Shown: positions 1,283 to 50,372, counted from the stretch's first letter. The stretch: DNA of 64,000 nt from Cryomorphaceae bacterium (GCA_047632755.1 JBLIDT010000009.1:17424-81423); one strand, 5' to 3'. Program-made: numbers and translations. The notes: generated by a model from the sequence alone, not told the origin.

Positions 1283-2331
1283 TTAGGCACCTCTACTTTT
1301 CGGATTAAGCTCTCTATTACTTCTTTGAGTTCTATTCCTTCTATTTCACGCTCGTAGCTTAAGATCAAGCGGTGATTCAAAACAGGGAAAACCGCTTTTT
1401 TGATGTCGTCGGGTGTTACGAAACCGCGTCCGTTCATCAATGCCAATGCTTTCGAAGCTTTGAGGATACCCAAAGAGGCTCTGGGTGACGCGCCCAAATA
1501 AAGGTCGCTATTGTTTCTCGTGCGGTCTACTATTTGGGCAATGTAAGTGATGAGTTCATCCTTGATGAAAATCTGCTCCACCACTTTTCGGAATTTGAGG
1601 AGATCTGCACCACTAAGCACGGGGTTAATCTGGTCTTCACGATTTCCGTAGAAGTCAGATTTGAATCTTCTAAGCATGATTTCCTCCTCTTCGAGACTGG
1701 GGTAGGTAGCCACCAGCTTAAAGATGAAACGGTCGAGCTGTGCTTCGGGCAGTTTATAGGTTCCTTCCTGCTCTACAGGGTTTTGGGTAGCCACTACAAA
1801 AAATGGAGGGTCGAGCTTGTAAGTATGCCCATCCACACTCACCTGCTTCTCTTCCATTACTTCCATAAGGGCGGCCTGGGTCTTGGCTGGAGCTCGGTTT
1901 ATCTCATCTATCAGAACTACATTGCTGAAAATCGGCCCCTTTTTGTAATGAAACTCGGAACGCTTCATGTCAAATACCGTGGTTCCAATAATGTCGGTTG
2001 GCATTAGGTCAGGCGTAAACTGAATACGCGTGAAGTCTACCGCGATACATTTGGCTAAGAGTTTTGAAATCAACGTTTTCGCAACACCAGGAACACCTTC
2101 TAACAGAACGTGTCCATCGGTGAGAAGGGCTGCAATCATGAAGTTGATAATCTCCAACTGACCGACGATCACTTTCTCAATTTCCTTTCGGATTTTGTCA
2201 ATAGCAAGGCCTGTCTCGTATGCTTCCGCGCTGAGCTGACTTTCAGGGATAGACTCCTTTGGTGGCATTTTGGGAACCGCGTTTTCTTCTTTTGGCGTTT
2301 CGCTCTCTTGGCTTTCGTTTTCTAGGGACAT
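1279..2331 (-). CDS. MoxR-family AAA+ ATPase
   Basis: 350 aa. Walker A GVPGVAKT, Walker B VVLIDEINRAPAKTQ, and ATQNPVEQEGTYKLPEAQLDRF, typical of MoxR. Confidence 0.92.
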   Translation of the reverse strand: MSLENESQESETPKEENAVPKMPPKESIPESQLSAEAYETGLAIDKIRKEIEKVIVGQLEIINFMIAALLTDGHVLLEGVPGVAKTLISKLLAKCIAVDFTRIQFTPDLMPTDIIGTTVFDMKRSEFHYKKGPIFSNVVLIDEINRAPAKTQAALMEVMEEKQVSVDGHTYKLDPPFFVVATQNPVEQEGTYKLPEAQLDRFIFKLVATYPSLEEEEIMLRRFKSDFYGNREDQINPVLSGADLLKFRKVVEQIFIKDELITYIAQIVDRTRNNSDLYLGASPRASLGILKASKALALMNGRGFVTPDDIKKAVFPVLNHRLILSYEREIEGIELKEVIESLIRKVEVPK

Positions 2332-3536
2332 CGTAAATAGAATTCAGTTATTTCGCGATCAATTTTAAGTAGTTCGCTATCATTCAAGGTGCTATTGTAT
2401 CGCGAGCGCTCCAGCTGCTTGAAAAATAGCTCAATATAATCCTTATCCAGTTTTAATTTAGCCGAAGCCAACTCATAGAAGTCATCATCGAGCTTGTTTG
2501 CATTAAGGCTGTACCTATTTCGCAAAAATGATTGAAGCAGCTTTACCTGACTCTGCAAGATATCCCGATGGCTTCCCTCTTTGCGAAACAAGCGATAAAC
2601 CATATCTAAGTAGGCCGATGTTTGATTTTCGGGCAATGATACCACAGGAATGGCTCTTTGCTTTCGGCGCATACTGTTGATGATGTAAAGCAACGCCAGG
2701 ACCAAAGTGAGGTACCAAGCCCATTTTAATGATTGATGTGCTAGAATAAACTTGAGTGGGCTTTCGCCAATATTGGGACCTCCGCCGTTTAATGATGATG
2801 ATGCAATTCCTGGTTCGAGATAATAGACGCTTTCGCCTTCCACTTGGCCAATCAATCCATTTACGTAGTTGAACACGCTATCTTCTCTAAAATGGTAATT
2901 GGTAAAAACGAGTGGAGTCGTATGCAGAAGCAGCTTTCCGTTTTCCGTTTTTTTCTCGATCAGGTTGGCGTGTTTTTCTCCGTTAATTTCAATAAACCCC
3001 ATTTCCTCCGAGCACGGCAAATCTTTGAAGTAAATCCATGAATGCAAGCTGGGTTCATTGAACGCATCGAGGGAAAGCTCAAAAGATGCGCTTCCATCCT
3101 CAACCTTGATCGACATGGACTCCTGCTTATCCGATAGGGATTGGCCTGCGTCTGCGCCGCAATCATCTAAGTAGCGCAGGGTCTTTCCCGCCAATGTGGA
3201 GCTGATTAGCAGATTATTGCCCTTGTCTACAAATTGCTTTAGAAGGGAGGCTTCTGTAGAATCTATCCAAGCGTAACCGGCAATATAGACCATGGTCTTC
3301 CCAGTGCTTTCCAAGTAACTGGTATCTGCAAAAAGTCCTTCGAGCACTTCAAATTCAGCGGCTGACTCCGCTAAGACTCCTTTGAATAAACTCAGATCGT
3401 AAGGTTGGAGACCATCATCATTGTACGTTTCATTCCAAGCATACCGTTTATTGGCTTGAGCCAAAAAATAGACTACCCCAAGTAGCACTACTGCGGCAAT
3501 TGCAATCAATATGCTGTTCTTGCGATTCTTATCCAT
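2322..3536 (-). CDS. Membrane protein, DUF4350-like (conserved MoxR-cluster partner)
   Basis: 404 aa. N-terminal TM (ILIAIAAVVLLGVVYFLA) and a second TM near residue 270. It overlaps the MoxR start by 10 nt. The family name is recalled from the usual cluster architecture, not from a diagnostic motif. Confidence 0.6.
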   Translation of the reverse strand: MDKNRKNSILIAIAAVVLLGVVYFLAQANKRYAWNETYNDDGLQPYDLSLFKGVLAESAAEFEVLEGLFADTSYLESTGKTMVYIAGYAWIDSTEASLLKQFVDKGNNLLISSTLAGKTLRYLDDCGADAGQSLSDKQESMSIKVEDGSASFELSLDAFNEPSLHSWIYFKDLPCSEEMGFIEINGEKHANLIEKKTENGKLLLHTTPLVFTNYHFREDSVFNYVNGLIGQVEGESVYYLEPGIASSSLNGGGPNIGESPLKFILAHQSLKWAWYLTLVLALLYIINSMRRKQRAIPVVSLPENQTSAYLDMVYRLFRKEGSHRDILQSQVKLLQSFLRNRYSLNANKLDDDFYELASAKLKLDKDYIELFFKQLERSRYNSTLNDSELLKIDREITEFYLRCP

Positions 3537-4158
3537 TTTTTATGGATTCGATGAATGCTAAAAATCGAGGCTCGGCTCGGTCAAAATCAAGTTGATTCAC
3601 CTCATTCGCTCCGTACCAAGTGAATTCATGGAGAAGTGTCAGCTGGAAGAAATCTTGGGCTTTTTCCTGCCACGACATTTCTTGAGTGTACTCGCGGTTG
3701 GTCTTGTCGGCTGCGGCTTTGAGCTTGCCTTGAGAGTCAAGGTGCTTAATTATAATCTGATAGAGTATTCTCGTCGCTTCGCGAAAGTTCTTCTCTTCTT
3801 TTGCTTTTTTGTGCGCAGCCCACAGCTCTGCGAGCGGCGATAAAGCAGTTGGACCTTCTTCAGCAGAATCTACCTCTAACGCATTTTCTTTCTTTCCTTC
3901 AGATTTGACTCGATTACTCGTGACTAGGCGCACCACGATGAATATCAGTAAAGCCGCCAAAATCGCAATTGCGATGTATCGGAAAGCCACCACCCAGTCT
4001 AGGGTATTGATACCCGGTGCGTCGAAACCAAGTTCCTGCACTTCGGGCGGAGCTTCATTGAACTCCATTCCTTCTTTGTCATCCAGCCACGTTTTGCGGT
4101 CGAGTGGGGCTTGTATGTAGTGAAATTGCCCTGCCAGATATGTGATTCGCTCCATCAT
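3529..4158 (-). CDS. Membrane-anchored protein, DUF4129-like
   Basis: 209 aa. One TM (IAIAILAALLIFIVVRLV) followed by a helical C-terminal domain. It overlaps the next gene by 8 nt and the previous one by 4 nt. Confidence 0.6.
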   Translation of the reverse strand: MMERITYLAGQFHYIQAPLDRKTWLDDKEGMEFNEAPPEVQELGFDAPGINTLDWVVAFRYIAIAILAALLIFIVVRLVTSNRVKSEGKKENALEVDSAEEGPTALSPLAELWAAHKKAKEEKNFREATRILYQIIIKHLDSQGKLKAAADKTNREYTQEMSWQEKAQDFFQLTLLHEFTWYGANEVNQLDFDRAEPRFLAFIESIKNG

Positions 4159-5993
4159 TCTTGTTCCATTCCGTAAGCCCTGCGCTTGTTTCCGATAGCC
4201 TTAACTCTCTGAGCCAAGCCAATTGCATTTTTTGCTTCTTGCGCTGAGTAGTATTCAAGCAATTGGGAAAAAAGCGTGAGAGGGAGTACCAATGCCAGTC
4301 CAAAATGATCGACAATGATCAAACTCATTATGGCCACTTTTTCCTTGACTTCGTAGTCTGCATCAATATTCCATTGGAGAACCTCCACATAAAACCAAGT
4401 GAATGGCGAAGCCAATAAGACTAAGATCAGCATGGATAAGAGTGCAATGGATAGAAAAGTGACGAATACATGCCTTTTTGTCCCGTTCAAAAGAGCCAGC
4501 ATTGAGCCAAATGCATTTGGAAGTGATAGTTTTTCCGTAGCGGAAACGACTAGCCAGAAAGTGAGAAAAGGAATAGCAATGATGCCCAAGGCCGCCACCA
4601 ATAGTTGATCGCTTAAGATGCTCAATTCAAAAAGCGATACGATGACTAAGATTTTCAAAAAGAGCGATCCATTGACTTTAATGGATACGCTTGGGTATGC
4701 CTTATTAAATTGAAAGAAGCTGAATGCAGCCATAGCCGAGATTAAAACACAATTGAGAAAAAAGCTCAGCGGGAAGATCGAATAGTCGTGAAATTGATAA
4801 AGGCTGAATGGGTCAAACTCGCTTATGGCAATCAATCCGAGACGTTCCGACCCATTCAGTAAATAAAAGATGAATGTATAGATTAGAGCAAAACCCACCG
4901 CCACTCCTAAAATCGAAAAGAAAGATTTGCGATACACCATAAAGGTTGTCGTGAAGATTTCTCTTGTTTTTCGAAGTCCCAATAAATCGGGCAATTCTTG
5001 AATCTCGGGTATCAGTTCTTCTTGGTCGATGCTGCGTTTTGGTCTTCCGCGAAAGCGAAGAAAAGGATACCACCAAAAATAAGCCGCAACGAAAGCAAAG
5101 CACATAAAGATGAAGCTTCCTCTCAGCAGATCGGGCATCTCGGTGAGCCGAGTGAAAAAACCTTCAATAAATCCTGCTGTGATGAAAAACGGCACCAATC
5201 CTACCATGATTTTTATAGCCCTTCTGGCGCCAATTATAAAAGATTGTCGTCTTGGCAGCGTGCCTGGAAACAATAGTCCTCTTCCCATGGTGAGCCCAGC
5301 TGCTCCCGCTATTACAATTGATGAAATCTCGAGTGCGCCATGCATCCAAATGGTCAGGAAGCTTTCCTGAAGCAAGTCACGCTCAATGAAAAAATACTGG
5401 AACGTTCCGACCATGACCCCATTGTAAAGCATAATCACCAAGGTGCCAACTCCGAAAAAGGCCCCGAGAACAAACGTTCTGAAAGCGACCAAAATATTAT
5501 TGATCGTAATCCTGAAAAACATCCCGAATTCCTCGCTGGATTTGTAAACGCCCATAGGGTCGCCGTTTGCGATGTTTTCCTCCGTCATCTCCACGTATTC
5601 TGCGCCGAGAATGACTTGGGCAAAATCAGGATCATGAATAGTTGACAGAATCCCGATGGCCATAGACACTAGAAAAAAGAGGAGTGAAATATTCAATTCT
5701 CTTTTTGCTTCGTAGAGCGCTAAGGGGAGTTCATTGATCCAAAACCAGGTAAATTTTTTCGATTTATCCCCGCGTTGTCGATTGAGCTTGAGATAGATGC
5801 TTTGGGCCAAGCCGTTGAGGTAAACTCTGATACTCCGTTTGGAATAGTGCGTTCGCGAATACGACAGATCTTCAGTAATCTGTGAGAATAAATCGCTGAA
5901 TTCTTCGGGGTTGACTTGTGATTTCGCCTGTGACGCCTTCTCAAATCGTGCCCAATTCTTCTGATTTTGCTCTACAAATCTTTTCTCACGCAT
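4155..5993 (-). CDS. SpoIIM-like (DUF95) membrane protein with an extra C-terminal polytopic domain
   Basis: 612 aa. The N-terminal ~335 aa resemble stage II sporulation protein M / DUF95 (…WMHGALEISSIVIAGAAGL…FIEGFFTR). The C-terminal ~275 aa hold about 6 more hydrophobic helices. Confidence 0.65.
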   Translation of the reverse strand: MREKRFVEQNQKNWARFEKASQAKSQVNPEEFSDLFSQITEDLSYSRTHYSKRSIRVYLNGLAQSIYLKLNRQRGDKSKKFTWFWINELPLALYEAKRELNISLLFFLVSMAIGILSTIHDPDFAQVILGAEYVEMTEENIANGDPMGVYKSSEEFGMFFRITINNILVAFRTFVLGAFFGVGTLVIMLYNGVMVGTFQYFFIERDLLQESFLTIWMHGALEISSIVIAGAAGLTMGRGLLFPGTLPRRQSFIIGARRAIKIMVGLVPFFITAGFIEGFFTRLTEMPDLLRGSFIFMCFAFVAAYFWWYPFLRFRGRPKRSIDQEELIPEIQELPDLLGLRKTREIFTTTFMVYRKSFFSILGVAVGFALIYTFIFYLLNGSERLGLIAISEFDPFSLYQFHDYSIFPLSFFLNCVLISAMAAFSFFQFNKAYPSVSIKVNGSLFLKILVIVSLFELSILSDQLLVAALGIIAIPFLTFWLVVSATEKLSLPNAFGSMLALLNGTKRHVFVTFLSIALLSMLILVLLASPFTWFYVEVLQWNIDADYEVKEKVAIMSLIIVDHFGLALVLPLTLFSQLLEYYSAQEAKNAIGLAQRVKAIGNKRRAYGMEQE

Positions 5994-6103
5994 TTGTCTG
6001 GGTCAAGCACTCGAAGGTATTTAATTTCCTCTTTTTGAAAGAAGAAAATGTCTCTAGGTGCTTGAATCTTATCATTCGAATCAAATTCTCTAATTTCGAC
6101 ACG

Positions 6104-6817
6104 ATGAGGAAGATCAGTATCACAACAGCTCAAAACATTGTTATCGATTTTAGGCTTGCTACAATCGGTCAGAGGTTTTTGGCTTTTGCAATTGATATGA
6201 TCATCGTATCAGCGGCTTCAGCATTTTTGGCTATTTTCCTTTCTATAATTAACACCAATCTTTTGGTGATCAATGGATTGGTTGCCATGCTCTACACATT
6301 GGTCATGGAACTGGTTTTTTCGGGACAAACTCCTGGAAAGATGGCTTTGAAAATTCGGGTTGTATCCCTAGAAGGCAAAGAACCAGACCCTCTCGATTTT
6401 GTCATTCGCTGGTCTTTTCGAATTATTGATATCTGGTTTAGCCTCGGCGCACTGGCCGTTGTCATGATCAGTACATCGCCGAGAGCACAAAGATTGGGAG
6501 GCGTTCTAAGCAACACGATGGTTGTCAACCTTGGCTCTGAGTCGGGTCTCTCCCTGAGCGATATTTTACGAATCGAGGATCGATCAAAATACTCCCCTCA
6601 GTATTTTGACGTGATTCGCTTTAGCGAAGACGAAATGCTCACGGTAAAAGCAGTGCTCGATCGATATGCCAAATACCGAAATACAGCTCACTTAACTCTT
6701 TTGGAGAATACGGCCAACCAGTGCGGCCAAGTCTTGGAGTTAAATGAAATCCCTGAAAACAAGATTGAGTTTTTACGCACCCTCATCAAGGATTACATCG
6801 TTATCACACGCAGCTGA
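6104..6817 (+). CDS. RDD family membrane protein
   Basis: The ORF track entry starts at 5918. The likely start is ATG 6104 (MRKISITTAQNIVIDFRLATIGQRFLAFAIDMIIV), which avoids overlapping the divergent gene. RDD-like N-terminal membrane domain. Confidence 0.7.
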   Translation: MRKISITTAQNIVIDFRLATIGQRFLAFAIDMIIVSAASAFLAIFLSIINTNLLVINGLVAMLYTLVMELVFSGQTPGKMALKIRVVSLEGKEPDPLDFVIRWSFRIIDIWFSLGALAVVMISTSPRAQRLGGVLSNTMVVNLGSESGLSLSDILRIEDRSKYSPQYFDVIRFSEDEMLTVKAVLDRYAKYRNTAHLTLLENTANQCGQVLELNEIPENKIEFLRTLIKDYIVITRS

Positions 6818-8613: not shown

Positions 8614-8967
8614 ATGGCTGAGAAATATACCATCTACCACAATCCCAGATGCCGAAAGAGTCGAGAGGCTCTCAACTTTCTAATCGAAGAAAAGGTAGAT
8701 CTCGAGGTAATAAAATACCTGGATGACCCCATTCAGTCCAAAGACTTTAAATTGCTTTTGGCAAGGCTCGATTTGAAAGTGAGCGACATTATCAGAAAGG
8801 AAGAGCAGCTGTTTAAGCAGAAGTACAAAGGCTTCGACTTTACCGACGAAGAATGGTTCATTGTTTTGGAAGAAAACCCAAAACTGCTACAGCGACCTAT
8901 AGTTGTAAAAGGCAGCAAGGCCGTGATTGGTCGACCGCTGGAAAATGTAAAAAACCTATTGAACTAG
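8614..8967 (+). CDS. ArsC/Spx-family protein (YffB-like)
   Basis: The likely start is ATG 8614 (MAEKYTIYHNPRCRKSREALNFL…). N-terminal CxxS/T-type ArsC-family motif; about 117 aa. Confidence 0.8.
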   Translation: MAEKYTIYHNPRCRKSREALNFLIEEKVDLEVIKYLDDPIQSKDFKLLLARLDLKVSDIIRKEEQLFKQKYKGFDFTDEEWFIVLEENPKLLQRPIVVKGSKAVIGRPLENVKNLLN

Positions 8968-8970
8968 ATT

Positions 8971-10365
8971 ATGGAGTATCGAATAGAAAAAGACACGATG
9001 GGCGAGGTAAAAGTACCTGCCGACAAATACTGGGGAGCACAAACTGAGCGCTCTCGGAATAACTTTAAAATTGGCCCCGAGGCGAGTATGCCTCTGGAAG
9101 TGATTTATGGGTTTGCTTATTTGAAAAAAGCTGCTGCAATCACAAATTTCAAAGCGGGTGTTTTGGCCGAAGAGAAAATGAAACTCATTGGCGCTGTATG
9201 CGATGAGATTTTGGAAGGAAAGCACGACGAGCAATTTCCGCTGGTTATATGGCAAACGGGATCGGGAACCCAGAGCAATATGAATTGCAATGAAGTGATT
9301 GCCAATCGCGCGCAAGTATTGAGCGGCGGGCACCTCGGAGAGGGCGAACGAAAAATTCACCCGAACGATGATGTCAACAAGTCTCAATCGAGCAACGATA
9401 CCTACCCGACGGGAATGCACATCGCATCCTACAAGGTCATCGTCGAAAAGACTATTCCAGGAGTGGAGAAGCTCAGAGATGTCATCAAATCGAAGTCTGA
9501 TGAGTTTATGAACGTGGTGAAAATAGGTCGGACACACCTGATGGATGCCACGCCTTTGACTTTAGGTCAAGAGTTTAGCGGATACGTTTCTCAACTCAAC
9601 CACGGCCTTCGTGCATTGAAAAACACGTTGGCCCACCTTAGCGAATTGGCCCTTGGTGGAACGGCCGTTGGAACGGGAATCAATACGCCTAACGGCTACG
9701 CAGAAAATGTAGCGAAGGAGATTGCCGACTTAACGGGATTGCCATTTATAACTGCTGAAAACAAGTTTGAGGCTCTAGCTGCTCACGATGCGATGGTGGA
9801 GACTCATGGTGCTTTGAAGCAATTGGCAATTTCTTTGAATAAGATTGCCAATGATATTCGAATGCTGGCTTCAGGCCCTCGAAGCGGGATTGGTGAAATA
9901 ATTATCCCAGCCAATGAGCCGGGTTCATCCATAATGCCGGGTAAGGTCAATCCTACGCAATGTGAAGCGTTGACTATGGTTTGCGCCCAAGTATTTGGAA
10001 ATGATGCCGCGATAGGATTCGGTGGTGCGCAAGGGCATTACGAGCTCAATGTATTTAAACCCGTAATGGCTTCGAATTTGATTCAATCAGCCAATCTCAT
10101 TGCCGACGCTTGCGTCTCTTTTACTGATAACTGTGCCGTGGGAATAGAACCAAACTACGAAGTGATCAAACGTCACTTGAACAATTCCCTCATGCTAGTT
10201 ACCGCTTTGAATACCCATATCGGCTATGACAAATCGGCTAAGATTGCGAAGGAAGCCCACAAAAACGGCACGACATTAAAAGAAGAAGCCGTGAAGTTGG
10301 AATACCTCACGGCCGAAGAATTTGACGAGTGGGTTGATCCACTCAAAATGACGGGATTGTCTTAA
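8971..10365 (+). CDS. fumC: Class II fumarate hydratase
   Basis: 464 aa with the signature [16 protein letters not shown]. Confidence 0.95.
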
Positions 10366-43331: not shown

Positions 43332-45839
43332 ATGAAGCACTCCATTGCCTCCATACCGTTTTTGAAAAGTAAAAAGGCACTCTTATTCCTCCTCGCCCTT
43401 TTTCTGTTTCCCGTATTTTCCTTTGCCCAAAGGACAATCGTTTATGGAAAGGTGTTCGACGCAGAAACGAAGGAGTCTCTTCCTTTTGTGAATGTAGCAT
43501 TCAAAGGAAGTAAGGTTGGAACCACCACAGATCTAGATGGGAATTACCGTCTCGAAACTTACTATGCCGAAGACTCTTTGATGTCTTCTTTTGTAGGGTA
43601 TAAGCCACTGGCATTTCGGGTTAAGGAAGACGAGAGCCAAAATATAGATTTTCCAATGGCAGAGGGTGCCGTCAGCTTGGGTGAAGTAGTCATTAACGCT
43701 AAGGACTTTGAAAACCCAGCCCATGTCATTCTTAAAAAGATCATTAAAAACAAGAAGGTCAACAACAGAGAGAAACTAGACTCTTATCAATACGAAACTT
43801 ACAACAAAATCGAGTTTGATCTCAACAACCTTTCCGACAAATTCAAAGAACGAAAGCTATTTAAGTCCTTCGATTTCATCTTTGACAATATTGATTCTAC
43901 GGGAGAAAAAGTGACCCTTCCCTTTTTTATGACCGAAACCTTGAGCGATTACTACTACCAAAGAAATCCAAAGGGTAGAAAAGAGATCATTCACGCTACG
44001 AAGGTTTCGGGGATCAACAACGAAAGTATCTCGCAATTTCTCGGTCAGATGTACCAAGATGTAAACATCTATCAAAACTCGCTCGGTATTTTTGGGAAAA
44101 ACTTCGTGAGCCCTATTTCCGATTATGGCTTGGTTTTCTATAAGTACTACTTAGTGGATAGCACATTCATTGATAGTAAGTGGTGCTATCGGTTGGATTT
44201 TCTTCCGAAGAATGAAAGTGAACTCGTCTTCGAAGGACACTTTTGGGTGAATGATACCACCTATGCCATCAAAGAAATTGACGCGACTATTTTGCCTTCG
44301 GCTAATATCAACTTCATCACCGATCTGCAAGTGAGGCATCAATACGATGAGGTAGAGCCCGAAGTTTGGATGTTGAAACGCGAAGAACTCTTGGCTGACT
44401 TTAGCCTGCTAGATTCCGAAATGGGCTTCTATGGAAAGAAGATGACCACCTACAAGGACTTTGTGATCAACAAGCCAAAAGACACTGAATTTTACAGTGG
44501 TGCCGAGAATGTCATTGTAGAAACGGAGATCAATGCTTTAGAAGAGTCTTACTGGAAAGAAAACAGACACGAGCAAATATCGGATGACCAGCAAGCCATT
44601 TACGACATGGTAGATAGCCTCAAGACCAATAGAGTCTTCATGACTTACGTGGATATTATAAATTTCTTTTTCCAAGGCTATTGGGTAGATGGTAAAGTGG
44701 AATGGGGTCCTGTTTTCACCTTTTTAAGTTACAACTCCGTTGAAGGTTTAAGACCCAAATTTGGGTTGCGAACCTCAAATGAGTTTAGTACTAGGCTGAA
44801 ACTGGAAGGCTATGCTGCTTACGGCACCAAAGACGAACGATTTAAGTACATGGTAGGAGGGACGTACTTTTTGAGTAAAAAGCCACGCCAAACTTTGGGG
44901 GCCTATTTTTCCGAAGATTATGAACTCATTGGCCAGGTGCCCAATTATTTTTCAAGAGATCACTTCATTCAAATACTGACCGTACGGAACCCACAGGACA
45001 GACTTATTTTAAACAAGCAGGCGCGTGTTTTCACAGAAAGAGTCTGGTTTAACGGGTTCTCCACTCTCTTGGAATTTCGACGCAGGGAGATGTCCTCAGC
45101 AGGAGCTTGGAATTTTGAGCGGAATGAAGATATAGGGGGAGAGATTCAGCTAGTCGATGTCAACAACATCATTAGTTCAGAGATATCGCTTGGCTTTCGT
45201 TTCGCTTTCCGCGAAAATTTTGTGGAGGGCGAATTCGAGAGGATTTCTCTGGGTAGTAATTGGCCTATTATAAACGCTAGAGTGGATTTTGGCTTGAAGG
45301 GAGTTATAGGAAGCGACTACGAATACCAGAAGCTAACGCTTACTGTCACTGACAAAATCCCCGCTGGGCCTTTCGGGACTATGAGGTACTCTCTGGAAGC
45401 AGGGAAAACTTGGCAAGCTCTTCCTTACCCGCTGCAGTTCGTGCATTCGGGTAACGAAAGTTTCTTTTACAATAGTGAGGCTTTTAACACGATGAACTTC
45501 TTCGAATTTGTTAGCGACCGCTATGTTGCTATGAGGGCTGAACACCATTTCGAGGGTTTTTTCTTCAATAAGATTCCGCTCTTTAAGAAGTTAAAGTGGC
45601 GAGAGATCGTTGGAGTGAATGGTATTTATGGAGCCTTTAACGAGTCAAATGCTGAAGAGTTGGTTCTGCCTGATCTCACCTTTACCTTTGATGATGGTAT
45701 TCCATTTGCCGAAGCTTATGTCGGGGTTGAAAATATCTTTCGGTTTTTTAGAGTGGACGCTGTTTGGAGATTAACCTACCTTGACAATCCCAATGCGCCT
45801 AAATTTGGCTTACTTCTTGGATTCGACATTCAATTCTAG
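43332..45839 (+). CDS. CarboxypepD_reg-like plus DUF5686-type outer-membrane protein
   Basis: 835 aa with a signal peptide. The N-terminal motif is VYGKVFDAETKESLPFVNVAFKGSKVGTTTDLDGNYRL. The C-terminal part is long and beta-rich and ends in Phe (FDIQF). Confidence 0.7.
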   Translation: MKHSIASIPFLKSKKALLFLLALFLFPVFSFAQRTIVYGKVFDAETKESLPFVNVAFKGSKVGTTTDLDGNYRLETYYAEDSLMSSFVGYKPLAFRVKEDESQNIDFPMAEGAVSLGEVVINAKDFENPAHVILKKIIKNKKVNNREKLDSYQYETYNKIEFDLNNLSDKFKERKLFKSFDFIFDNIDSTGEKVTLPFFMTETLSDYYYQRNPKGRKEIIHATKVSGINNESISQFLGQMYQDVNIYQNSLGIFGKNFVSPISDYGLVFYKYYLVDSTFIDSKWCYRLDFLPKNESELVFEGHFWVNDTTYAIKEIDATILPSANINFITDLQVRHQYDEVEPEVWMLKREELLADFSLLDSEMGFYGKKMTTYKDFVINKPKDTEFYSGAENVIVETEINALEESYWKENRHEQISDDQQAIYDMVDSLKTNRVFMTYVDIINFFFQGYWVDGKVEWGPVFTFLSYNSVEGLRPKFGLRTSNEFSTRLKLEGYAAYGTKDERFKYMVGGTYFLSKKPRQTLGAYFSEDYELIGQVPNYFSRDHFIQILTVRNPQDRLILNKQARVFTERVWFNGFSTLLEFRRREMSSAGAWNFERNEDIGGEIQLVDVNNIISSEISLGFRFAFRENFVEGEFERISLGSNWPIINARVDFGLKGVIGSDYEYQKLTLTVTDKIPAGPFGTMRYSLEAGKTWQALPYPLQFVHSGNESFFYNSEAFNTMNFFEFVSDRYVAMRAEHHFEGFFFNKIPLFKKLKWREIVGVNGIYGAFNESNAEELVLPDLTFTFDDGIPFAEAYVGVENIFRFFRVDAVWRLTYLDNPNAPKFGLLLGFDIQF

Positions 45840-45845
45840 ACTATT

Positions 45846-46580
45846 ATGATCCTTCGAGCTGAAAACCTGGTTAAGAAATACAAAAGTCGCGTAGTTGTGA
45901 AAGGCGTTTCCGTGCAGGTAGAACAAGGTGAAATCGTTGGTCTACTCGGGCCAAACGGAGCGGGAAAAACCACCACATTTTATATGACCGTGGGTTTGGT
46001 TCAGCCCAACTCAGGGAAGATTTATCTCGACGACGAAGACATTACTGACCGGGCGATGTATGAGCGTGCGAAGCTTGGAGTCGGCTACCTGCCTCAGGAG
46101 CCAAGTGTTTTTAGAAAGCTAAGTGTCGAAGACAACGTCAAAGCCGTTTTGGAAATGACCAAGCTCACCAAGAAAGAGCAGTCGGATAAATTGGAAACGC
46201 TGATAGACGAATTGGGCCTTGGTCATGTGCGCACCAACCGTGGAGACTTTCTCTCGGGAGGCGAGCGCCGCCGAACCGAAATCGCTCGAGCTTTGGCCAC
46301 CGACCCAAAGTTTATTTTGTTGGACGAACCCTTTGCGGGGGTCGACCCCATTGCTGTAGAAGACATCCAATCCATCGTAGCCCAACTTAAAACGAAGAAC
46401 ATCGGTATCCTCATTACCGACCACAACGTTCAGGAAACCCTTTCCATCACCGACAGGGCTTATCTCCTTTTTGAGGGAAATATCCTCAAATCAGGTACCG
46501 CCGAAGAACTGGCTTCAGACGAGCAGGTCAGAAAAGTGTATTTGGGCAAGAACTTTGAGTTGAGGAGGAAAGTGCTTTAA
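45846..46580 (+). CDS. lptB: LPS export ABC transporter ATP-binding protein LptB
   Basis: 244 aa. Walker [10 protein letters not shown], signature [15 protein letters not shown], Walker [15 protein letters not shown]-loop ITDHNV. Confidence 0.92.
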
Positions 46581-46585
46581 GCCAT
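46407..46585 (+). repeat. Direct repeat copy 1 (functional lptB 3' end plus 5 nt past the stop)
   Basis: 179 nt, with 162/179 positions identical to 49942..50120 in a hand alignment. Confidence 0.9.
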
Positions 46586-46803
46586 TATCTGTTACGAGGG
46601 CTAAGGCAGGAGTAAACTCGCCTTATTCACACAAGAGGTATACAGGAGGAAGGACGGATGATTCGCTCCCGATGGCTGAGTGTAATTACAATTTGAAATG
46701 GGTGTTCTTGTCGAAGTTTCGGAGCTTATTTACTTGAGATATTTACTGATTCATCAGCTTTCAAAGTCTTACTAAATGCTGAAAAGCAGGTTCATTATTC
46801 TGA

Positions 46804-46811
46804 TATATTTG
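46804..46811 (+). promoter_or_regulatory. Candidate -7 box TATATTTG upstream of the FG-GAP gene
   Basis: Matches TAnnTTTG, 68 nt upstream of ATG 46879. Confidence 0.3.
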
Positions 46812-46878
46812 TTTAAAATTTCTCTATAGATTGTAAGATAAATTTCTCTATTTTTACTCAACCAAAAAACAACCAATC

Positions 46879-49698
46879 ATGCAGACTCGCTATATTTCAA
46901 TCATCATTTTCATTTTTATTTCTGCCACAGGCTTTGCTCAATTGTTTAGCCAAGAGAAGGAGCTTACAAGTCAAACGCGCGGTGCACTTGACGTCAATAA
47001 AGGGGACCTGGACGGAGATGGAGATATGGATCTCATAGCGGCTTCTTCAATTGACGGACGCATTGGATGGTACGAGAATAGAGGGATAGAAGGTGTTGGC
47101 CCGCAGCAGACCATAAGTAGGGAAGCTGTTGGCGCTAGTTCGGTCTTTGCAGCTGATTTGGACGGGGATGGATCTGTAGATGTGCTCTCCAGTTCCTTTG
47201 ATGATGATAAGATAGCATGGTATAGAAATCTTGGACAAGGACTGTTCGGTCTTCAGCAGCTTATAGCTATAGATGCTGATGGGGCTTTATCGGTCATCGC
47301 AGCAGACCTAGATGGTGATGGCGATATGGATGTTATTACCGCTTCTGAACTGGACAACAACATAAGGTCTTATTACAATGACGGAGCTGGAAATTTCGGG
47401 GCAGCCGTCATCATCAATTCCTTAGCTGATGGCGCGCAGTCGGTTTTCACTGCTGACATAGATGGCGATGGCGATTTAGATGTGCTATCTGCATCTATTT
47501 ATGATGATACCGTTGCCTGGTATGCCAATGACGGAAATGGCAATTTCAGCGCCTCTCAAATTATCACATCACTAGCCAATGGAGCCACCTCAGTTTGGGC
47601 GGCAGACCTAGACGGAGATGGCGATCAGGATGTTCTTTCTAGTTCTAGAAATGACAATACAATTGCCTGGTATCAAAACAGTGGGTCAGGAGTTTTTGGA
47701 GTGAAGCAGGTCTTGTCTTCCAATTCCGTGGGTGCCCAATCAGTGCAGACTGCTGATTTCGATAATGATGGCGACCTGGATGTCTTTGCTGCTTCAAGAG
47801 GTGATAGTAAAACAGCCTTTTTCATCAATCAAGGTGCTGGGATCTTTAGCACAGAGCAAATTGTTAGTACTGAAACTATAGGGATGCGCGAATTGGTGCT
47901 GCTAGATCTCCTTGCTGATGGTGATTTAGACTTGGTGTGCGCTTCTTTCGGAGATGATATGCTCTCGTGGTTCGAGAACAGAGGTCCAGCAGGAATAGGG
48001 CCTAGACAATTGCTATCAAACTATGCAACCACTGCCAAGTGTGTGATAGCTGCCGATGTAGATGGTGATGGGGACAATGATGTTCTCTTTTCCTCCTTTG
48101 GGGATAATAGAGTAGGGTGGTATGAAAATCTGGGTTCGGGGAATTTTAGCCGACAGAATATCATCACCAACAATGCTGGTCAAGTAGGAACGATTGACGC
48201 AGTTGACATGGATCTTGATGGCGATATCGATGTGCTTTCCGCTTCGCGCAGTGATAGCAAGATAGCTTGGTATGAAAATGATGGCACAGGGAATTTCGGG
48301 CCTCAGTTGATCATTTCTTCGGAAGCGTCAGGAGCGCGTTCGGCCAGAGCGGCTGACTTCGACGGTGATGGAGACTTGGATGTTGTCTCGGCATTGCGGT
48401 TAAGTAATGGAGTGGCATGGCACGAGAATCTTGGAGGTCAAGTCTTTGCTCCTCAAGTTGTCATCACCGATCAGACAATTGGTATTCGATGCGTCTTTCC
48501 ATCAGATCTGGATGGCGACGGTGATATAGATATAATATCTGCTTCCTCCTTTGATGATAAGATAGCTTGGTATGCCAATGATGGTGCAGGGAATTTCGGT
48601 CCTCCACAAATGGTTAGTCTTTTGGCTAATAGTCCGCCGTCAGTGCGCACGGCCGATTTGGATGGAGATGGCGACTTGGATATCATCTCGGCCTCTGATA
48701 GAGATGCAAAAATAGCTTGGTATCAGAATAATGGACTCGGAGTTTTCGGTGTTCAACAAGTGATCTCCCTAGAAGCTGATGCCGCTCAATCTGTTCACCC
48801 TGCTGATGTAGACGGCGATGGTGATATCGATGTTCTTTCTGCTTCTTATTTTGACAACAAGATTGCTTGGTATGAAAACGATGGTTTGGGGAATTTTGGA
48901 CCTCAGCAGATTATTTCGACCCAAGCAGAAGGAGCTCTTTTTGTCTCCGCTGCCGATTTGGACGGCGATGGAGATTTAGATGCTATGTCGGCCTCGCTTT
49001 TGGATAATAAGATCGCTTGGTATGAGAATCTCTCACAATCGGTTTGCAATGCACCTCTTAACTTGGATGTAATAGAGATAGGATTCAGCGGGTCCAATCC
49101 TGAAGTGAACCTTTCATGGGATAATACAAACGGGACTGCTAATTGCGAAGTGAAAGCAGGGCGTATCAATACGGCTTCAGCTGCCACTGCGACACCTGTA
49201 TTTGCAAACCTGAATAACACACAGATATTGACTCAGACTACTGGGGCAGGACTCCTGTTCAATATAGGCCTCTATGATAATCCCACAGCCTTGATCATTC
49301 CTGGCGCTTGGTATGGATTTGAGGTGCGCTGTACTTGTCAAAATGGATCAGGTTATTCTCCTTGGTCAGGATTGATGCCTTCATCAGTGGTTCAGATCCC
49401 AGTATTGAATCCTGTATTTGCTCCTGAAAACACCCAGAATACTTCACTGGAAACAGGGAAAAGTATCCGCTTATATCCCAATCCATTTTCGGCAACAGCC
49501 ACACTAGATCTAGGAGGCAGTGCAGGATGGCTTGGAATGGAGATCTATGACCTACAAGGCCGATTGATCAGACATGATAAGGTTTATTCGCAGGAGGGCA
49601 TTGTGCGTATAGACAGGGCTGACTTGGTGAGCGGGAGTTATATCCTTAGGCTCAAAACCGCATCAAAGAGCAGGGAGCTTCTTTTCATTGTGGAGTAG
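46879..49698 (+). CDS. FG-GAP/VCBS-repeat protein (14 blades) with a T9SS C-terminal sorting domain
   Basis: 939 aa with a signal peptide. It has 14 repeats of about 59-63 aa, each with the Ca-binding-like loop ADLDGDGDxDV and KIAWYxNxGxGNFG. CTD: IRLYPNPFSATATLDL…GSYILRLKTASKSRELLFIVE. Confidence 0.9.
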   Translation: MQTRYISIIIFIFISATGFAQLFSQEKELTSQTRGALDVNKGDLDGDGDMDLIAASSIDGRIGWYENRGIEGVGPQQTISREAVGASSVFAADLDGDGSVDVLSSSFDDDKIAWYRNLGQGLFGLQQLIAIDADGALSVIAADLDGDGDMDVITASELDNNIRSYYNDGAGNFGAAVIINSLADGAQSVFTADIDGDGDLDVLSASIYDDTVAWYANDGNGNFSASQIITSLANGATSVWAADLDGDGDQDVLSSSRNDNTIAWYQNSGSGVFGVKQVLSSNSVGAQSVQTADFDNDGDLDVFAASRGDSKTAFFINQGAGIFSTEQIVSTETIGMRELVLLDLLADGDLDLVCASFGDDMLSWFENRGPAGIGPRQLLSNYATTAKCVIAADVDGDGDNDVLFSSFGDNRVGWYENLGSGNFSRQNIITNNAGQVGTIDAVDMDLDGDIDVLSASRSDSKIAWYENDGTGNFGPQLIISSEASGARSARAADFDGDGDLDVVSALRLSNGVAWHENLGGQVFAPQVVITDQTIGIRCVFPSDLDGDGDIDIISASSFDDKIAWYANDGAGNFGPPQMVSLLANSPPSVRTADLDGDGDLDIISASDRDAKIAWYQNNGLGVFGVQQVISLEADAAQSVHPADVDGDGDIDVLSASYFDNKIAWYENDGLGNFGPQQIISTQAEGALFVSAADLDGDGDLDAMSASLLDNKIAWYENLSQSVCNAPLNLDVIEIGFSGSNPEVNLSWDNTNGTANCEVKAGRINTASAATATPVFANLNNTQILTQTTGAGLLFNIGLYDNPTALIIPGAWYGFEVRCTCQNGSGYSPWSGLMPSSVVQIPVLNPVFAPENTQNTSLETGKSIRLYPNPFSATATLDLGGSAGWLGMEIYDLQGRLIRHDKVYSQEGIVRIDRADLVSGSYILRLKTASKSRELLFIVE
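46969..49024 (+). repeat. Intragenic tandem array of 14 FG-GAP repeat units (about 180 nt period)
   Basis: Read from the translated repeats. The units are divergent at nucleotide level. Confidence 0.8.
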
Positions 49699-49814
49699 AA
49701 AGGGTCCATTTCCTTATTCTTCTTTACTATTGAACCAGAGTTCCTTTGCCTAAGGAGTGTTTGTTATTCAATTCTTATTTATTTGATCAGCTCTGCACAG
49801 TTTTTCAGTCTTGT

Positions 49815-50115
49815 GAAATCCCGAGACGTGGCTGCCCACCTGAAGTATGTTTTTTAAATAAACCCTCCACTGGAGTTGATCCCACAATAGTTGAAGCGCC
49901 GCAATCCGGCGATGCTCAACTCAAAATCAACCAATAACGAGATCCTCATCACCGACCACAACGTTCAGGAAACCCTCTCCATCACTGACAGGGCTTATCT
50001 CCTCTTCGAAGGAAATATCCTCAAGTCAGGCACCGCCGAAGAGTTGGCTTCTGATGAGCAGGTGAGAAAGGTGTATTTGGGTAAGAATTTTGAGTTGAGG
50101 AGGAAAGTGCTTTAG
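49815..50115 (+). pseudogene. lptB remnant: decayed middle part plus an intact 3' end
   Basis: 49815-49941 translates to [40 protein letters not shown], compared with Lpt[42 protein letters not shown]. Walker B is destroyed and there is a stop and a 1-nt frameshift. 49942-50112 encodes 57 aa identical to the LptB C-terminus. Confidence 0.85.
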
Positions 50116-50120
50116 GCCAT
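49942..50120 (+). repeat. Direct repeat copy 2 (displaced lptB 3' end abutting purS)
   Basis: The 179-nt counterpart of 46407..46585. Its stop TAG (50113-50115) overlaps the purS stop on the opposite strand. Confidence 0.9.
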
Positions 50121-50372
50121 CTCCCGCTCTGCCAACTGAAAAGAGTACTTCTCCATAATCTGATTGGCCAACAGCTTCTTGCAAGCAGCCTCTACTTTTT
50201 CTTCAGCTTCTTCCTTGCTAGCTGCAATTACGTGCAGAGACATGTGCTTGCCGATTCTCACGTTGGTGATTTCTTCCAAGCCTAAGTTTTTCATGCTCGC
50301 GGTTACAGCTTTTCCTTGTGGGTCTAACAATGCGTCGAGGGGCATAATGTCAATTTCGGCAGTAAATTCCAT
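50112..50372 (-). CDS. purS: Phosphoribosylformylglycinamidine synthase subunit PurS
   Basis: The likely start is ATG 50372 ([23 protein letters not shown]…), giving 86 aa. The longer track ORF has a hydrophobic extension that overlaps pssA. Confidence 0.85.

Follow-up and report, generated by a model that had tools for sequence, protein, structure and literature searches.

A strain-specific 3535-bp insertion at the lptB/purS overlap of a Cryomorphaceae species is bounded by two lptB 3' ends that differ at synonymous sites

Results

Gene content of the lptB/purS locus

A 64,000-nucleotide stretch of DNA from a Cryomorphaceae bacterium (GCA_047632755.1, JBLIDT010000009.1:17424-81423), referred to throughout as the window, was analysed around the point at which the ATPase gene lptB and the purS gene of the opposite strand converge. 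The locus is a strain-specific 3535-bp insertion polymorphism at the tail-to-tail overlap of these two genes. A gene for a predicted secreted protein (the cargo gene; with its leader, the cassette) is enclosed between two copies of the lptB 3' end: copy 1 completes the working lptB, and copy 2 stands beside purS, preceded by a decayed lptB fragment that we call the old relic (Table 1).

Table 1. Features of the window locus and of the lptB-downstream array on contig CAJXOV010000015.1 (L017). SNP, single-nucleotide polymorphism; T9SS, type IX secretion system.
Feature	Sequence	Coordinates	Strand	Description
lptB	Window	45846-46580	+	Functional, 244 aa; mosaic, with a 5' part ~97% identical to conspecifics and a 3' end that is the cassette-linked allele A
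Divergent patch in lptB	Window	46190-46220	+	6-7 SNPs not found in any conspecific, E121D among them
Donor-type SNPs (46388 T, 46397 G)	Window	46388-46406	+	Upstream of the repeat boundary
Copy 1	Window	46407-46585	+	Last 57 codons of lptB (allele A), stop and GCCAT (purS tail remnant); part of working lptB
Cassette leader	Window	46586-46878	+	AT-rich, unique sequence
Cargo gene	Window	46879-49698	+	939-aa secreted protein (predicted), FG-GAP/T9SS
Spacer 3' of cargo gene	Window	49699-49814	+	No homology to lptB or other sequences compared
Old relic	Window	49815-49941	+	Decayed lptB fragment, codons 146-187; absent from all empty-site relatives
Copy 2	Window	49942-50120	+	Orphaned lptB 3' end (allele B), stop and purS overlap
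purS	Window	50112-50372	-	86 aa; PF02700, NF004630; stop overlaps the copy 2 stop
Relic 1	L017	3426-3631		Codons 174-242; ~85% identical, frameshift, switch histidine lost
Relic 2	L017	5392-5509		Codons 211-244; ~80% identical
Relic 3	L017	6313-6392		Codons 218-244; ~65% identical

The product of lptB scores 375.3 bits against the equivalog model TIGR04406 (LPS_export_lptB), for which the cutoff is 240. The cargo protein comprises 13 FG-GAP_3 repeats (PF13517), a region of 150 aa that lacks homologues, and a sorting domain of T9SS type A at residues 865 to 934, recognised by both PF18962 (30.7 bits, cutoff 27) and TIGR04183 (34 bits, cutoff 23). Its N-terminus is hydrophobic by eye, and the protein has the signal peptide and Por_Secre_tail domain expected of T9SS type A cargo. 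The best database homologues are approximately 50% identical and align with the repeats only; for the stretch at 49024-49450 (residues ~716 to 860), a word-indexed search of 5.8 billion proteins returned no homologue. The exact 939-aa protein is itself absent from that collection, though the gene has been called on many contigs.

A first-pass annotation, made from the window sequence alone, described the FG-GAP/T9SS gene and its AT-rich leader as the only contents between the copies, with no integrase or transposase, and our searches agree on both counts. The cargo gene is the sole open reading frame (ORF) longer than 105 aa within 46586-49941, and neither a recombinase nor a transposase was found in the 3535-bp indel, Pfam giving FG-GAP_3 and Por_Secre_tail only. 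The GC content of the leader falls to 0.37, and a Bacteroidota-type -7 motif (TAnnTTTG) was spotted by eye at 46804-46811. At approximately 46727-46739 the leader holds a 13-nt tandem duplication (TATTTACTTGAGA), missing in contig L081, which is the sole variation seen among the cassette-bearing contigs.

The two lptB 3' ends encode the same peptide

Copies 1 and 2 form a direct repeat with an offset of 3535 nt that covers the last 57 codons of lptB, the stop codon and 5 nt beyond. A codon-by-codon comparison found 17 differences in 179 nt, in exact agreement with the count first made by hand. Sixteen fall in sense codons and all 16 are synonymous (15 at third positions and one CTG/TTG), so the 57-aa peptide is the same in both. 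The seventeenth, TAA versus TAG, is also silent in purS on the opposite strand (Ala, GCT versus GCC). By the Nei-Gojobori method (S = 38.3, N = 132.7) pS is 0.42, dS approximately 0.61 and dN zero; the neutral chance of 16 out of 16 changes being synonymous is about 4e-11. The absence of replacements is nevertheless unremarkable for a pair of lptB ends, because relatives with LptB identities as low as 93% show hardly any variation in these 57 residues.

The repeat is sharply bounded. Upstream of 46407 and 49942 identity drops from about 90% to 50-57%, as had been suspected for the boundary ahead of copy 2, and beyond 46585 and 50120 it falls to chance level. The 5 nt that follow the copy 1 stop, GCCAT, agree with the purS tail; beyond them, no decayed purS remnant was detected above shuffled controls. 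The purS and copy 2 stop codons have two bases in common. In public records the ORF of copy 2 is annotated as a 67-aa 'LptB'.

Relatives carry an empty site

Close relatives were located via members of the PurS and LptB protein clusters. All data are short-read metagenome assemblies, and assembly support was judged at contig level. The comparison took in conspecifics (L089, L090-L095, L096-L101 and L102, the last an extra empty-site contig, the only one that a DNA pattern scan of metagenome contigs for lptB 3' ends added) and sister lineages (L107-L115, among them Cryomorphaceae bacterium 1068, L111; L085; L002). In L089-L102 and L107-L115 a 244-aa lptB shares 4 nt with purS, and none of these loci has the FG-GAP gene; in L085 and L002 the two genes converge directly, 6 nt apart. 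The first-pass annotation had proposed this very comparison as a check, expecting lptB to converge directly on purS wherever the FG-GAP gene is absent, and every close relative that was checked bears it out.

Relative to these empty sites, the indel is exactly the 3535-bp segment. The flanks are closely conserved: L096 matches the window at 99-100% identity through the 8 kb to either side, L090 matches it at 97-98%, and the purS of the window is 99.2% identical to that of L088 and L089. Since all close relatives compared are without the segment and the flanks are 97-100% identical, it is therefore a recent, lineage-specific gain within one uncultured marine-type Cryomorphaceae species. Because the lptB and purS stops overlap, leaving no neutral intergenic DNA, an insert could be tolerated here only with the ends of both genes preserved, and hence with a duplicated lptB 3' end.

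Copy 2 is the resident allele and copy 1 the incoming one

Comparison of the copies with the lptB 3' ends of the conspecifics identified copy 2 as a working allele of this species, recently orphaned and without detectable decay. Over 171 nt, copy 2 differs from the working 3' end of L090-L095 and L102 at two positions (169/171 identical) and at the stop. The allele so defined, allele B (L090, L091, L095 and L102), lies two to three differences from copy 2 and 14-15 from copy 1. A further allele, C, is found in L089 and L096 and lies 12 differences from each copy; all differences of alleles B and C from the two copies are synonymous. The empty-site conspecifics also overlap purS exactly as copy 2 does, which places copy 2 in the ancestral context suggested for it at first.

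Copy 1 (allele A) is 12-16 nt out of 171 from every sampled functional allele and equals none of them. Many of the bases that define it are common to the more distant lineages L107, L111 and L112, and the distance between alleles A and B (9.4%) is close to the 9.6% that separates the 5' part of lptB in the window from its counterpart in the sister species L112. Copy 1 is thus a different allele, at approximately sister-species distance, that arrived with the cassette. Two proposals of the first-pass annotation hold on this evidence: that the 3' ends diverged as parts of working lptB genes in different lineages or alleles, copy 2 being the functional allele B; and that the event supplied lptB with a substitute 3' end, the resident end remaining as copy 2.

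Against the GTDB representatives L001, L002 and L085 the synonymous sites are saturated (third-position identity ~0.4), and the copies are not placeable there.

The three synonymous-only 3' alleles within this one species are 6.4-9.4% apart, against 2-3% in the 5' part of the gene, and they are mosaic, with blocks in common with each other and with L112. Among conspecifics, diversity at the lptB 3' end exceeds that of the 5' part by a factor of 2.5-3 (Fisher p = 0.007-0.02). In the DUF5686 gene upstream of lptB, a patch at 45098-45195 holds some 30 differences in about 100 nt from the otherwise 99-100% identical L096 and looks like a short piece imported from a distant lineage. Given this patch, the three 3' alleles and the excess 3' diversity, short and highly divergent mosaic imports are common in this population.

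The relic beside purS is a composite of two ages

Immediately upstream of copy 2, the old relic aligns to the corresponding part of lptB (46280-46406) with 76-78 of 126 nt identical (60-62%), a weak but real homology. Identity by codon position is 74%, 67% and 40%, and a tblastn comparison with LptB gave 15 of 29 aa identical (E = 1e-4). The fragment contains a TAA stop and a 1-nt insertion, and its Walker B motif is destroyed; it had been read from the first as decayed lptB with these lesions, to which the alignment now gives a figure. Upstream of 49815, no lptB homology exceeded shuffled controls.

The relic as a whole is a composite: its left 127 nt are old and copy 2 is fresh. The old relic is only 60-62% identical to any lptB, its third positions being near saturation, whereas the 174 nt of copy 2 are 98.3% identical to a working conspecific allele. 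Were both parts equally young, a contrast of this size would have a probability of about 1e-39. The old relic came with the cassette, since it is absent from all empty-site genomes. It joins copy 2 in register, bar the 1-nt insertion inside the old relic itself; because the halves meet in this way, their join was guided by homology and is not illegitimate. At the junction of the cargo spacer with the old relic (49814/49815) and that of GCCAT with the leader (46585/46586), no informative homology was found.

The minus strand has a weak terminator-like hairpin at 49928-49958, made up of 14 pairs (3 G-C) with a T-rich tail behind them; it spans the junction of the old relic with copy 2, approximately 155 nt downstream of the purS stop, and such terminator-like sites are no more numerous than in shuffled sequence. 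Neither promoter nor terminator counts at the locus rise above those of shuffled sequence, and no match to Rfam families or tRNAs was found there. Inverted repeats, repeats of the cassette flanks and recurrences of the leader sequence elsewhere were likewise sought and none was found.

The two exchange points do not coincide

At 46388 and 46397, where the window has T and G, all conspecifics have C and A; T is found in L107 and L111, and G in L107, L111 and L112. Because these donor-type SNPs precede the repeat, the left exchange lies upstream of 46407. The right exchange, at 49942, is the equivalent of 46407 and does not coincide with the left one. This geometry fits a double crossover and not a reciprocal crossover at one att core. 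Several of the SNPs in the divergent patch at 46190-46220 are also common to the more distant L107 and L111, and the patch may either be within the imported tract or be separate from it.

Other loci downstream of lptB

An uncultured Flavobacteriales metagenome-assembled genome (MAG) with 80% LptB identity (L017, CAJXOV010000015.1) carries, at 1794-6400, an intact lptB followed by three lptB 3' relics (Table 1). Cargos of a single gene each separate them, among these a minus-strand PMT_2 glycosyltransferase and a membrane protein of 234 aa. Relic decay rises with distance from lptB and the 5' boundaries differ, so that from its sequence the array looks like serial displacement without a fixed crossover site. 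Since L017 is unrelated and holds three such relics in series, the insertion process recurs independently.

Two further kinds of arrangement were seen. In L086 (8001-9107) and L087 (7997-9103), as also in the proteins P0002, P0006 and P0244, LptB is 365-371 aa long: its last 57 residues are unusually divergent, with 13 of 57 differing versus 14 of 187 upstream, and an extension of 124 aa, zinc-ribbon-like with its two CxxC pairs, is fused to them in frame. The extended lptB lies directly before purS, with no relic. In the distant relative L001 (CAZYWJ010000004.1; LptB 91% identical), a gene coding for DUF6922 with an AbiEii toxin-like C-terminus is placed between lptB and purS at 8767-9387; it is partly N-masked, and no lptB relic is present there.

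Discussion

A proposed history of the insertion

We propose that a donor structure made up of an lptB end, the cargo gene and the old relic moved into this lineage by homologous recombination, a history to which we assign a probability of roughly 0.62. The order of events, the identity of the donor and the mechanism of the primary insertion are what we infer from the features described above. In an unsampled lineage at about sister-species distance, the FG-GAP/T9SS gene would first have been inserted 5 nt past the lptB stop, with duplication of codons 146-244 and of those 5 nt, and the downstream copy would then have decayed there as a pseudogene. Candidates for the primary event are homology-facilitated illegitimate recombination (HFIR), the Campbell-type integration of a circular molecule and the duplication of a long target. 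RecA-type homologous recombination would later have carried the whole structure into the present species, with the left exchange inside lptB, at or upstream of 46388, and the right exchange at codon 188, between the old relic of the donor and the working lptB 3' end of the recipient. From left to right, the product would consist of the 5' part of the recipient lptB, the 3' end from the donor (copy 1, now functional), the cargo gene, the donor relic (49815-49941) and the recipient copy 2, the donor piece having replaced a few resident bases. On this history the copies differ at synonymous sites alone because they were inherited from two working alleles, and the boundary at 49942 is sharp because it is a recombination junction.

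Several observations weigh against such a transfer. No donor was found: the C-terminal 224 aa of the cargo protein have no homologue in the protein collection or in the metagenome scan, a weak negative given that the cargo protein itself is missing from the collection searched, and the pattern scan of metagenome contigs for lptB 3' ends yielded no donor of allele A. Nor was a second context for the cassette found, the exact protein being present in this context only. For the right exchange, the donor relic must still have been homologous past codon 188 at a time when its left part had about 60% identity, which needs either a recent earlier refresh (a 'ratchet') or luck. The closest relatives of the window (L096, L088/L089) carry allele C and not B, so that either the composite came wholly from an allele-B host or allele C arrived later. 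Finally, the SNPs at 46388 and 46397 could be later mutations (roughly p = 0.04), which would allow a single reciprocal crossover at 46407.

Alternative explanations

The first-pass annotation had found the locus to fit islands that target the 3' ends of genes. In its explicit form, this explanation posits a site-specific integrative cassette of the e14/phage 21-icd type whose attP would bear a substitute lptB 3' end (copy 1) on one arm and an old, never-selected lptB-like piece (49815-49941) on the other, the boundary being the att core, the crossover falling at codon 188 and the recombinase being encoded elsewhere or since lost. The architecture does recall icd-e14-icdC, where a working gene with an element-borne 3' end is followed by the element and the orphaned resident end (PMC13626634): here too the substitute end leaves LptB intact, with the resident end orphaned downstream. 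An attP of this kind would also give a sharp boundary and a two-age relic, and relatives do have the empty site. However, the 3535-bp indel contains no recombinase, the FG-GAP gene being its only real ORF, and the donor-type SNPs precede the supposed core. Nor does the boundary hold an exact core: 8 identical nt (ATCCTCAT) come ahead of the first mismatch, and the longest identical runs (26 nt each) are internal to the repeat. Together with the in-register right join, the L017 relics that begin at codons 174, 211 and 218 and so point to no fixed crossover site, and the single context in which the cassette occurs, these features make the explanation unlikely in our view. A primary insertion in one step in this very lineage, by HFIR or a long target duplication, would make 49815-50120 the displaced 3' end of the resident gene. 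HFIR has been proposed for similar 'displacement' arrays (PMC5361080), and the duplication is indeed one continuous block from codon 146 to the stop and 5 nt beyond. A relic formed in this way must nonetheless be of one age; its left 127 nt are about 60% identical and its right 174 nt 98.3%, and the difference in age between the halves argues strongly against a one-step origin in this lineage, which leaves this explanation decidedly improbable.

Selection on the relic was the alternative first offered for the all-synonymous pattern: the ORF of 67 or 74 aa (49912 or 49891 to 50115) would specify an LptB C-terminal peptide of some use, with purifying selection preserving copy 2 as the part upstream decayed. 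That ORF is intact and annotated by gene callers, and all three changes that set copy 2 apart from L090 are silent. Were copy 2 of the same age as the decayed part (neutral d ~0.4), its synonymous sites should have drifted to a like distance from conspecific alleles, but only 2 of about 38 differ from allele B, and the silent changes fit the divergence of a working gene at the 2-3% level of the flanks. A 57-residue piece starting at the H-loop strand is, moreover, unlikely to fold alone, judging from ABC ATPase structure. We consider preservation of this kind highly improbable. Misassembly is very unlikely too. The 179-nt repeat might in principle have served to link strains with alleles A and B, with the true place of the FG-GAP gene being elsewhere; the data are short-read metagenome assemblies, and the population does hold several lptB 3' alleles. 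However, four independent assemblies, made from different samples by different pipelines, agree on the structure at 99.8-100% identity, and the exact cargo protein occurs in 40 sample blocks, in this context every time. Cargo contigs reach 124 kb among those read, and 152 kb is on record for the flanking genes. The decayed relic exists only at this junction, and the copies, being 9.5% divergent, are easily assembled through; we give this artefact next to no credence. Two routes by conversion were considered separately. Gene conversion between the two copies was rejected, as it would make them identical. Refreshment of an old relic in situ, by conversion from an empty-site conspecific, is unlikely, as about 60% identity offers no pairing and the cassette would also have to have been lost in all sampled conspecifics.

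A broader and doubtful extension of the proposed transfer is that the cassette represents an as yet unrecognised class of integrase-free mobile units that use the 3' end of a highly conserved essential gene as a portable homology arm. It is conceivable, at rather long odds, that such a unit would loop out and re-integrate in any relative via the host RecA, donating its 3' end and orphaning the resident one. Each round could then refresh the right part of the relic while the left part went on decaying, a ratchet that we put forward only tentatively and that, repeated, would build arrays like that of L017. Speculatively again, such events would seed excess synonymous diversity at the lptB 3' end.

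Implications

The locus is a natural example of an accessory gene slipped between overlapping convergent core genes without a recombinase. Relic halves of different ages mark a recombination junction and so offer a way to date events of this kind, and a repeat pair that differs only at synonymous sites need not imply selection on the spare copy. The 67-aa 'LptB' of public MAG records is a pseudogene fragment and thus an annotation error. The downstream end of lptB may be a recurrent site of gene gain in Flavobacteriales; nothing of relevance on lptB as a site of integration came out of a literature search. The biology of lipopolysaccharide transport is unchanged by these results.

Comparison with known systems

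In the icd-e14-icdC arrangement of Escherichia coli, inserted DNA supplies the icd 3' end and leaves the resident end as a pseudogene; the ends differ mostly at synonymous sites, and excision or recombination makes chimeric alleles in the population (PMC13626634, and Hill et al. 1989 as cited there). The lptB locus is similar in that an essential gene works via a substitute 3' end, with the resident end downstream and differences that are mostly synonymous. It is unlike e14, which is a prophage of 15 kb that encodes an integrase and has a defined att core: at lptB a single cargo gene without a recombinase has been inserted, the exchange points do not coincide and the relic is of two ages.

In HFIR, a process of transformable bacteria, foreign DNA is taken in next to a conserved gene that provides the homologous anchor (PMC5361080; PMC3240628). 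lptB likewise serves as an anchor, the left junction lying within lptB homology; the right junction at 49942, unlike those of HFIR, is in register and guided by homology, not by microhomology. HFIR could therefore apply only to the unobserved primary event.

[quoted passage not shown] There, incoming DNA recombines with the conserved 5' part and brings a new 3' end and downstream gene, and completed arrays spread by homologous recombination (PMC2935791, PMC5361080). As in rhs, cdiA and T6SS loci, lptB has a conserved 5' core, a new 3' end with a linked gene and a displaced old end, and in L017 the displacement is serial. The tips of those systems are different toxins, however, with a cognate immunity gene as cargo and selection on tip diversity, none of which the lptB locus has: both of its tips encode the same housekeeping ATPase peptide, and the cargo is an unrelated secreted repeat protein. 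The duplication at lptB is only a by-product that keeps lptB and purS intact. The lptB case is a known kind of event in variant form and not a new mechanism.

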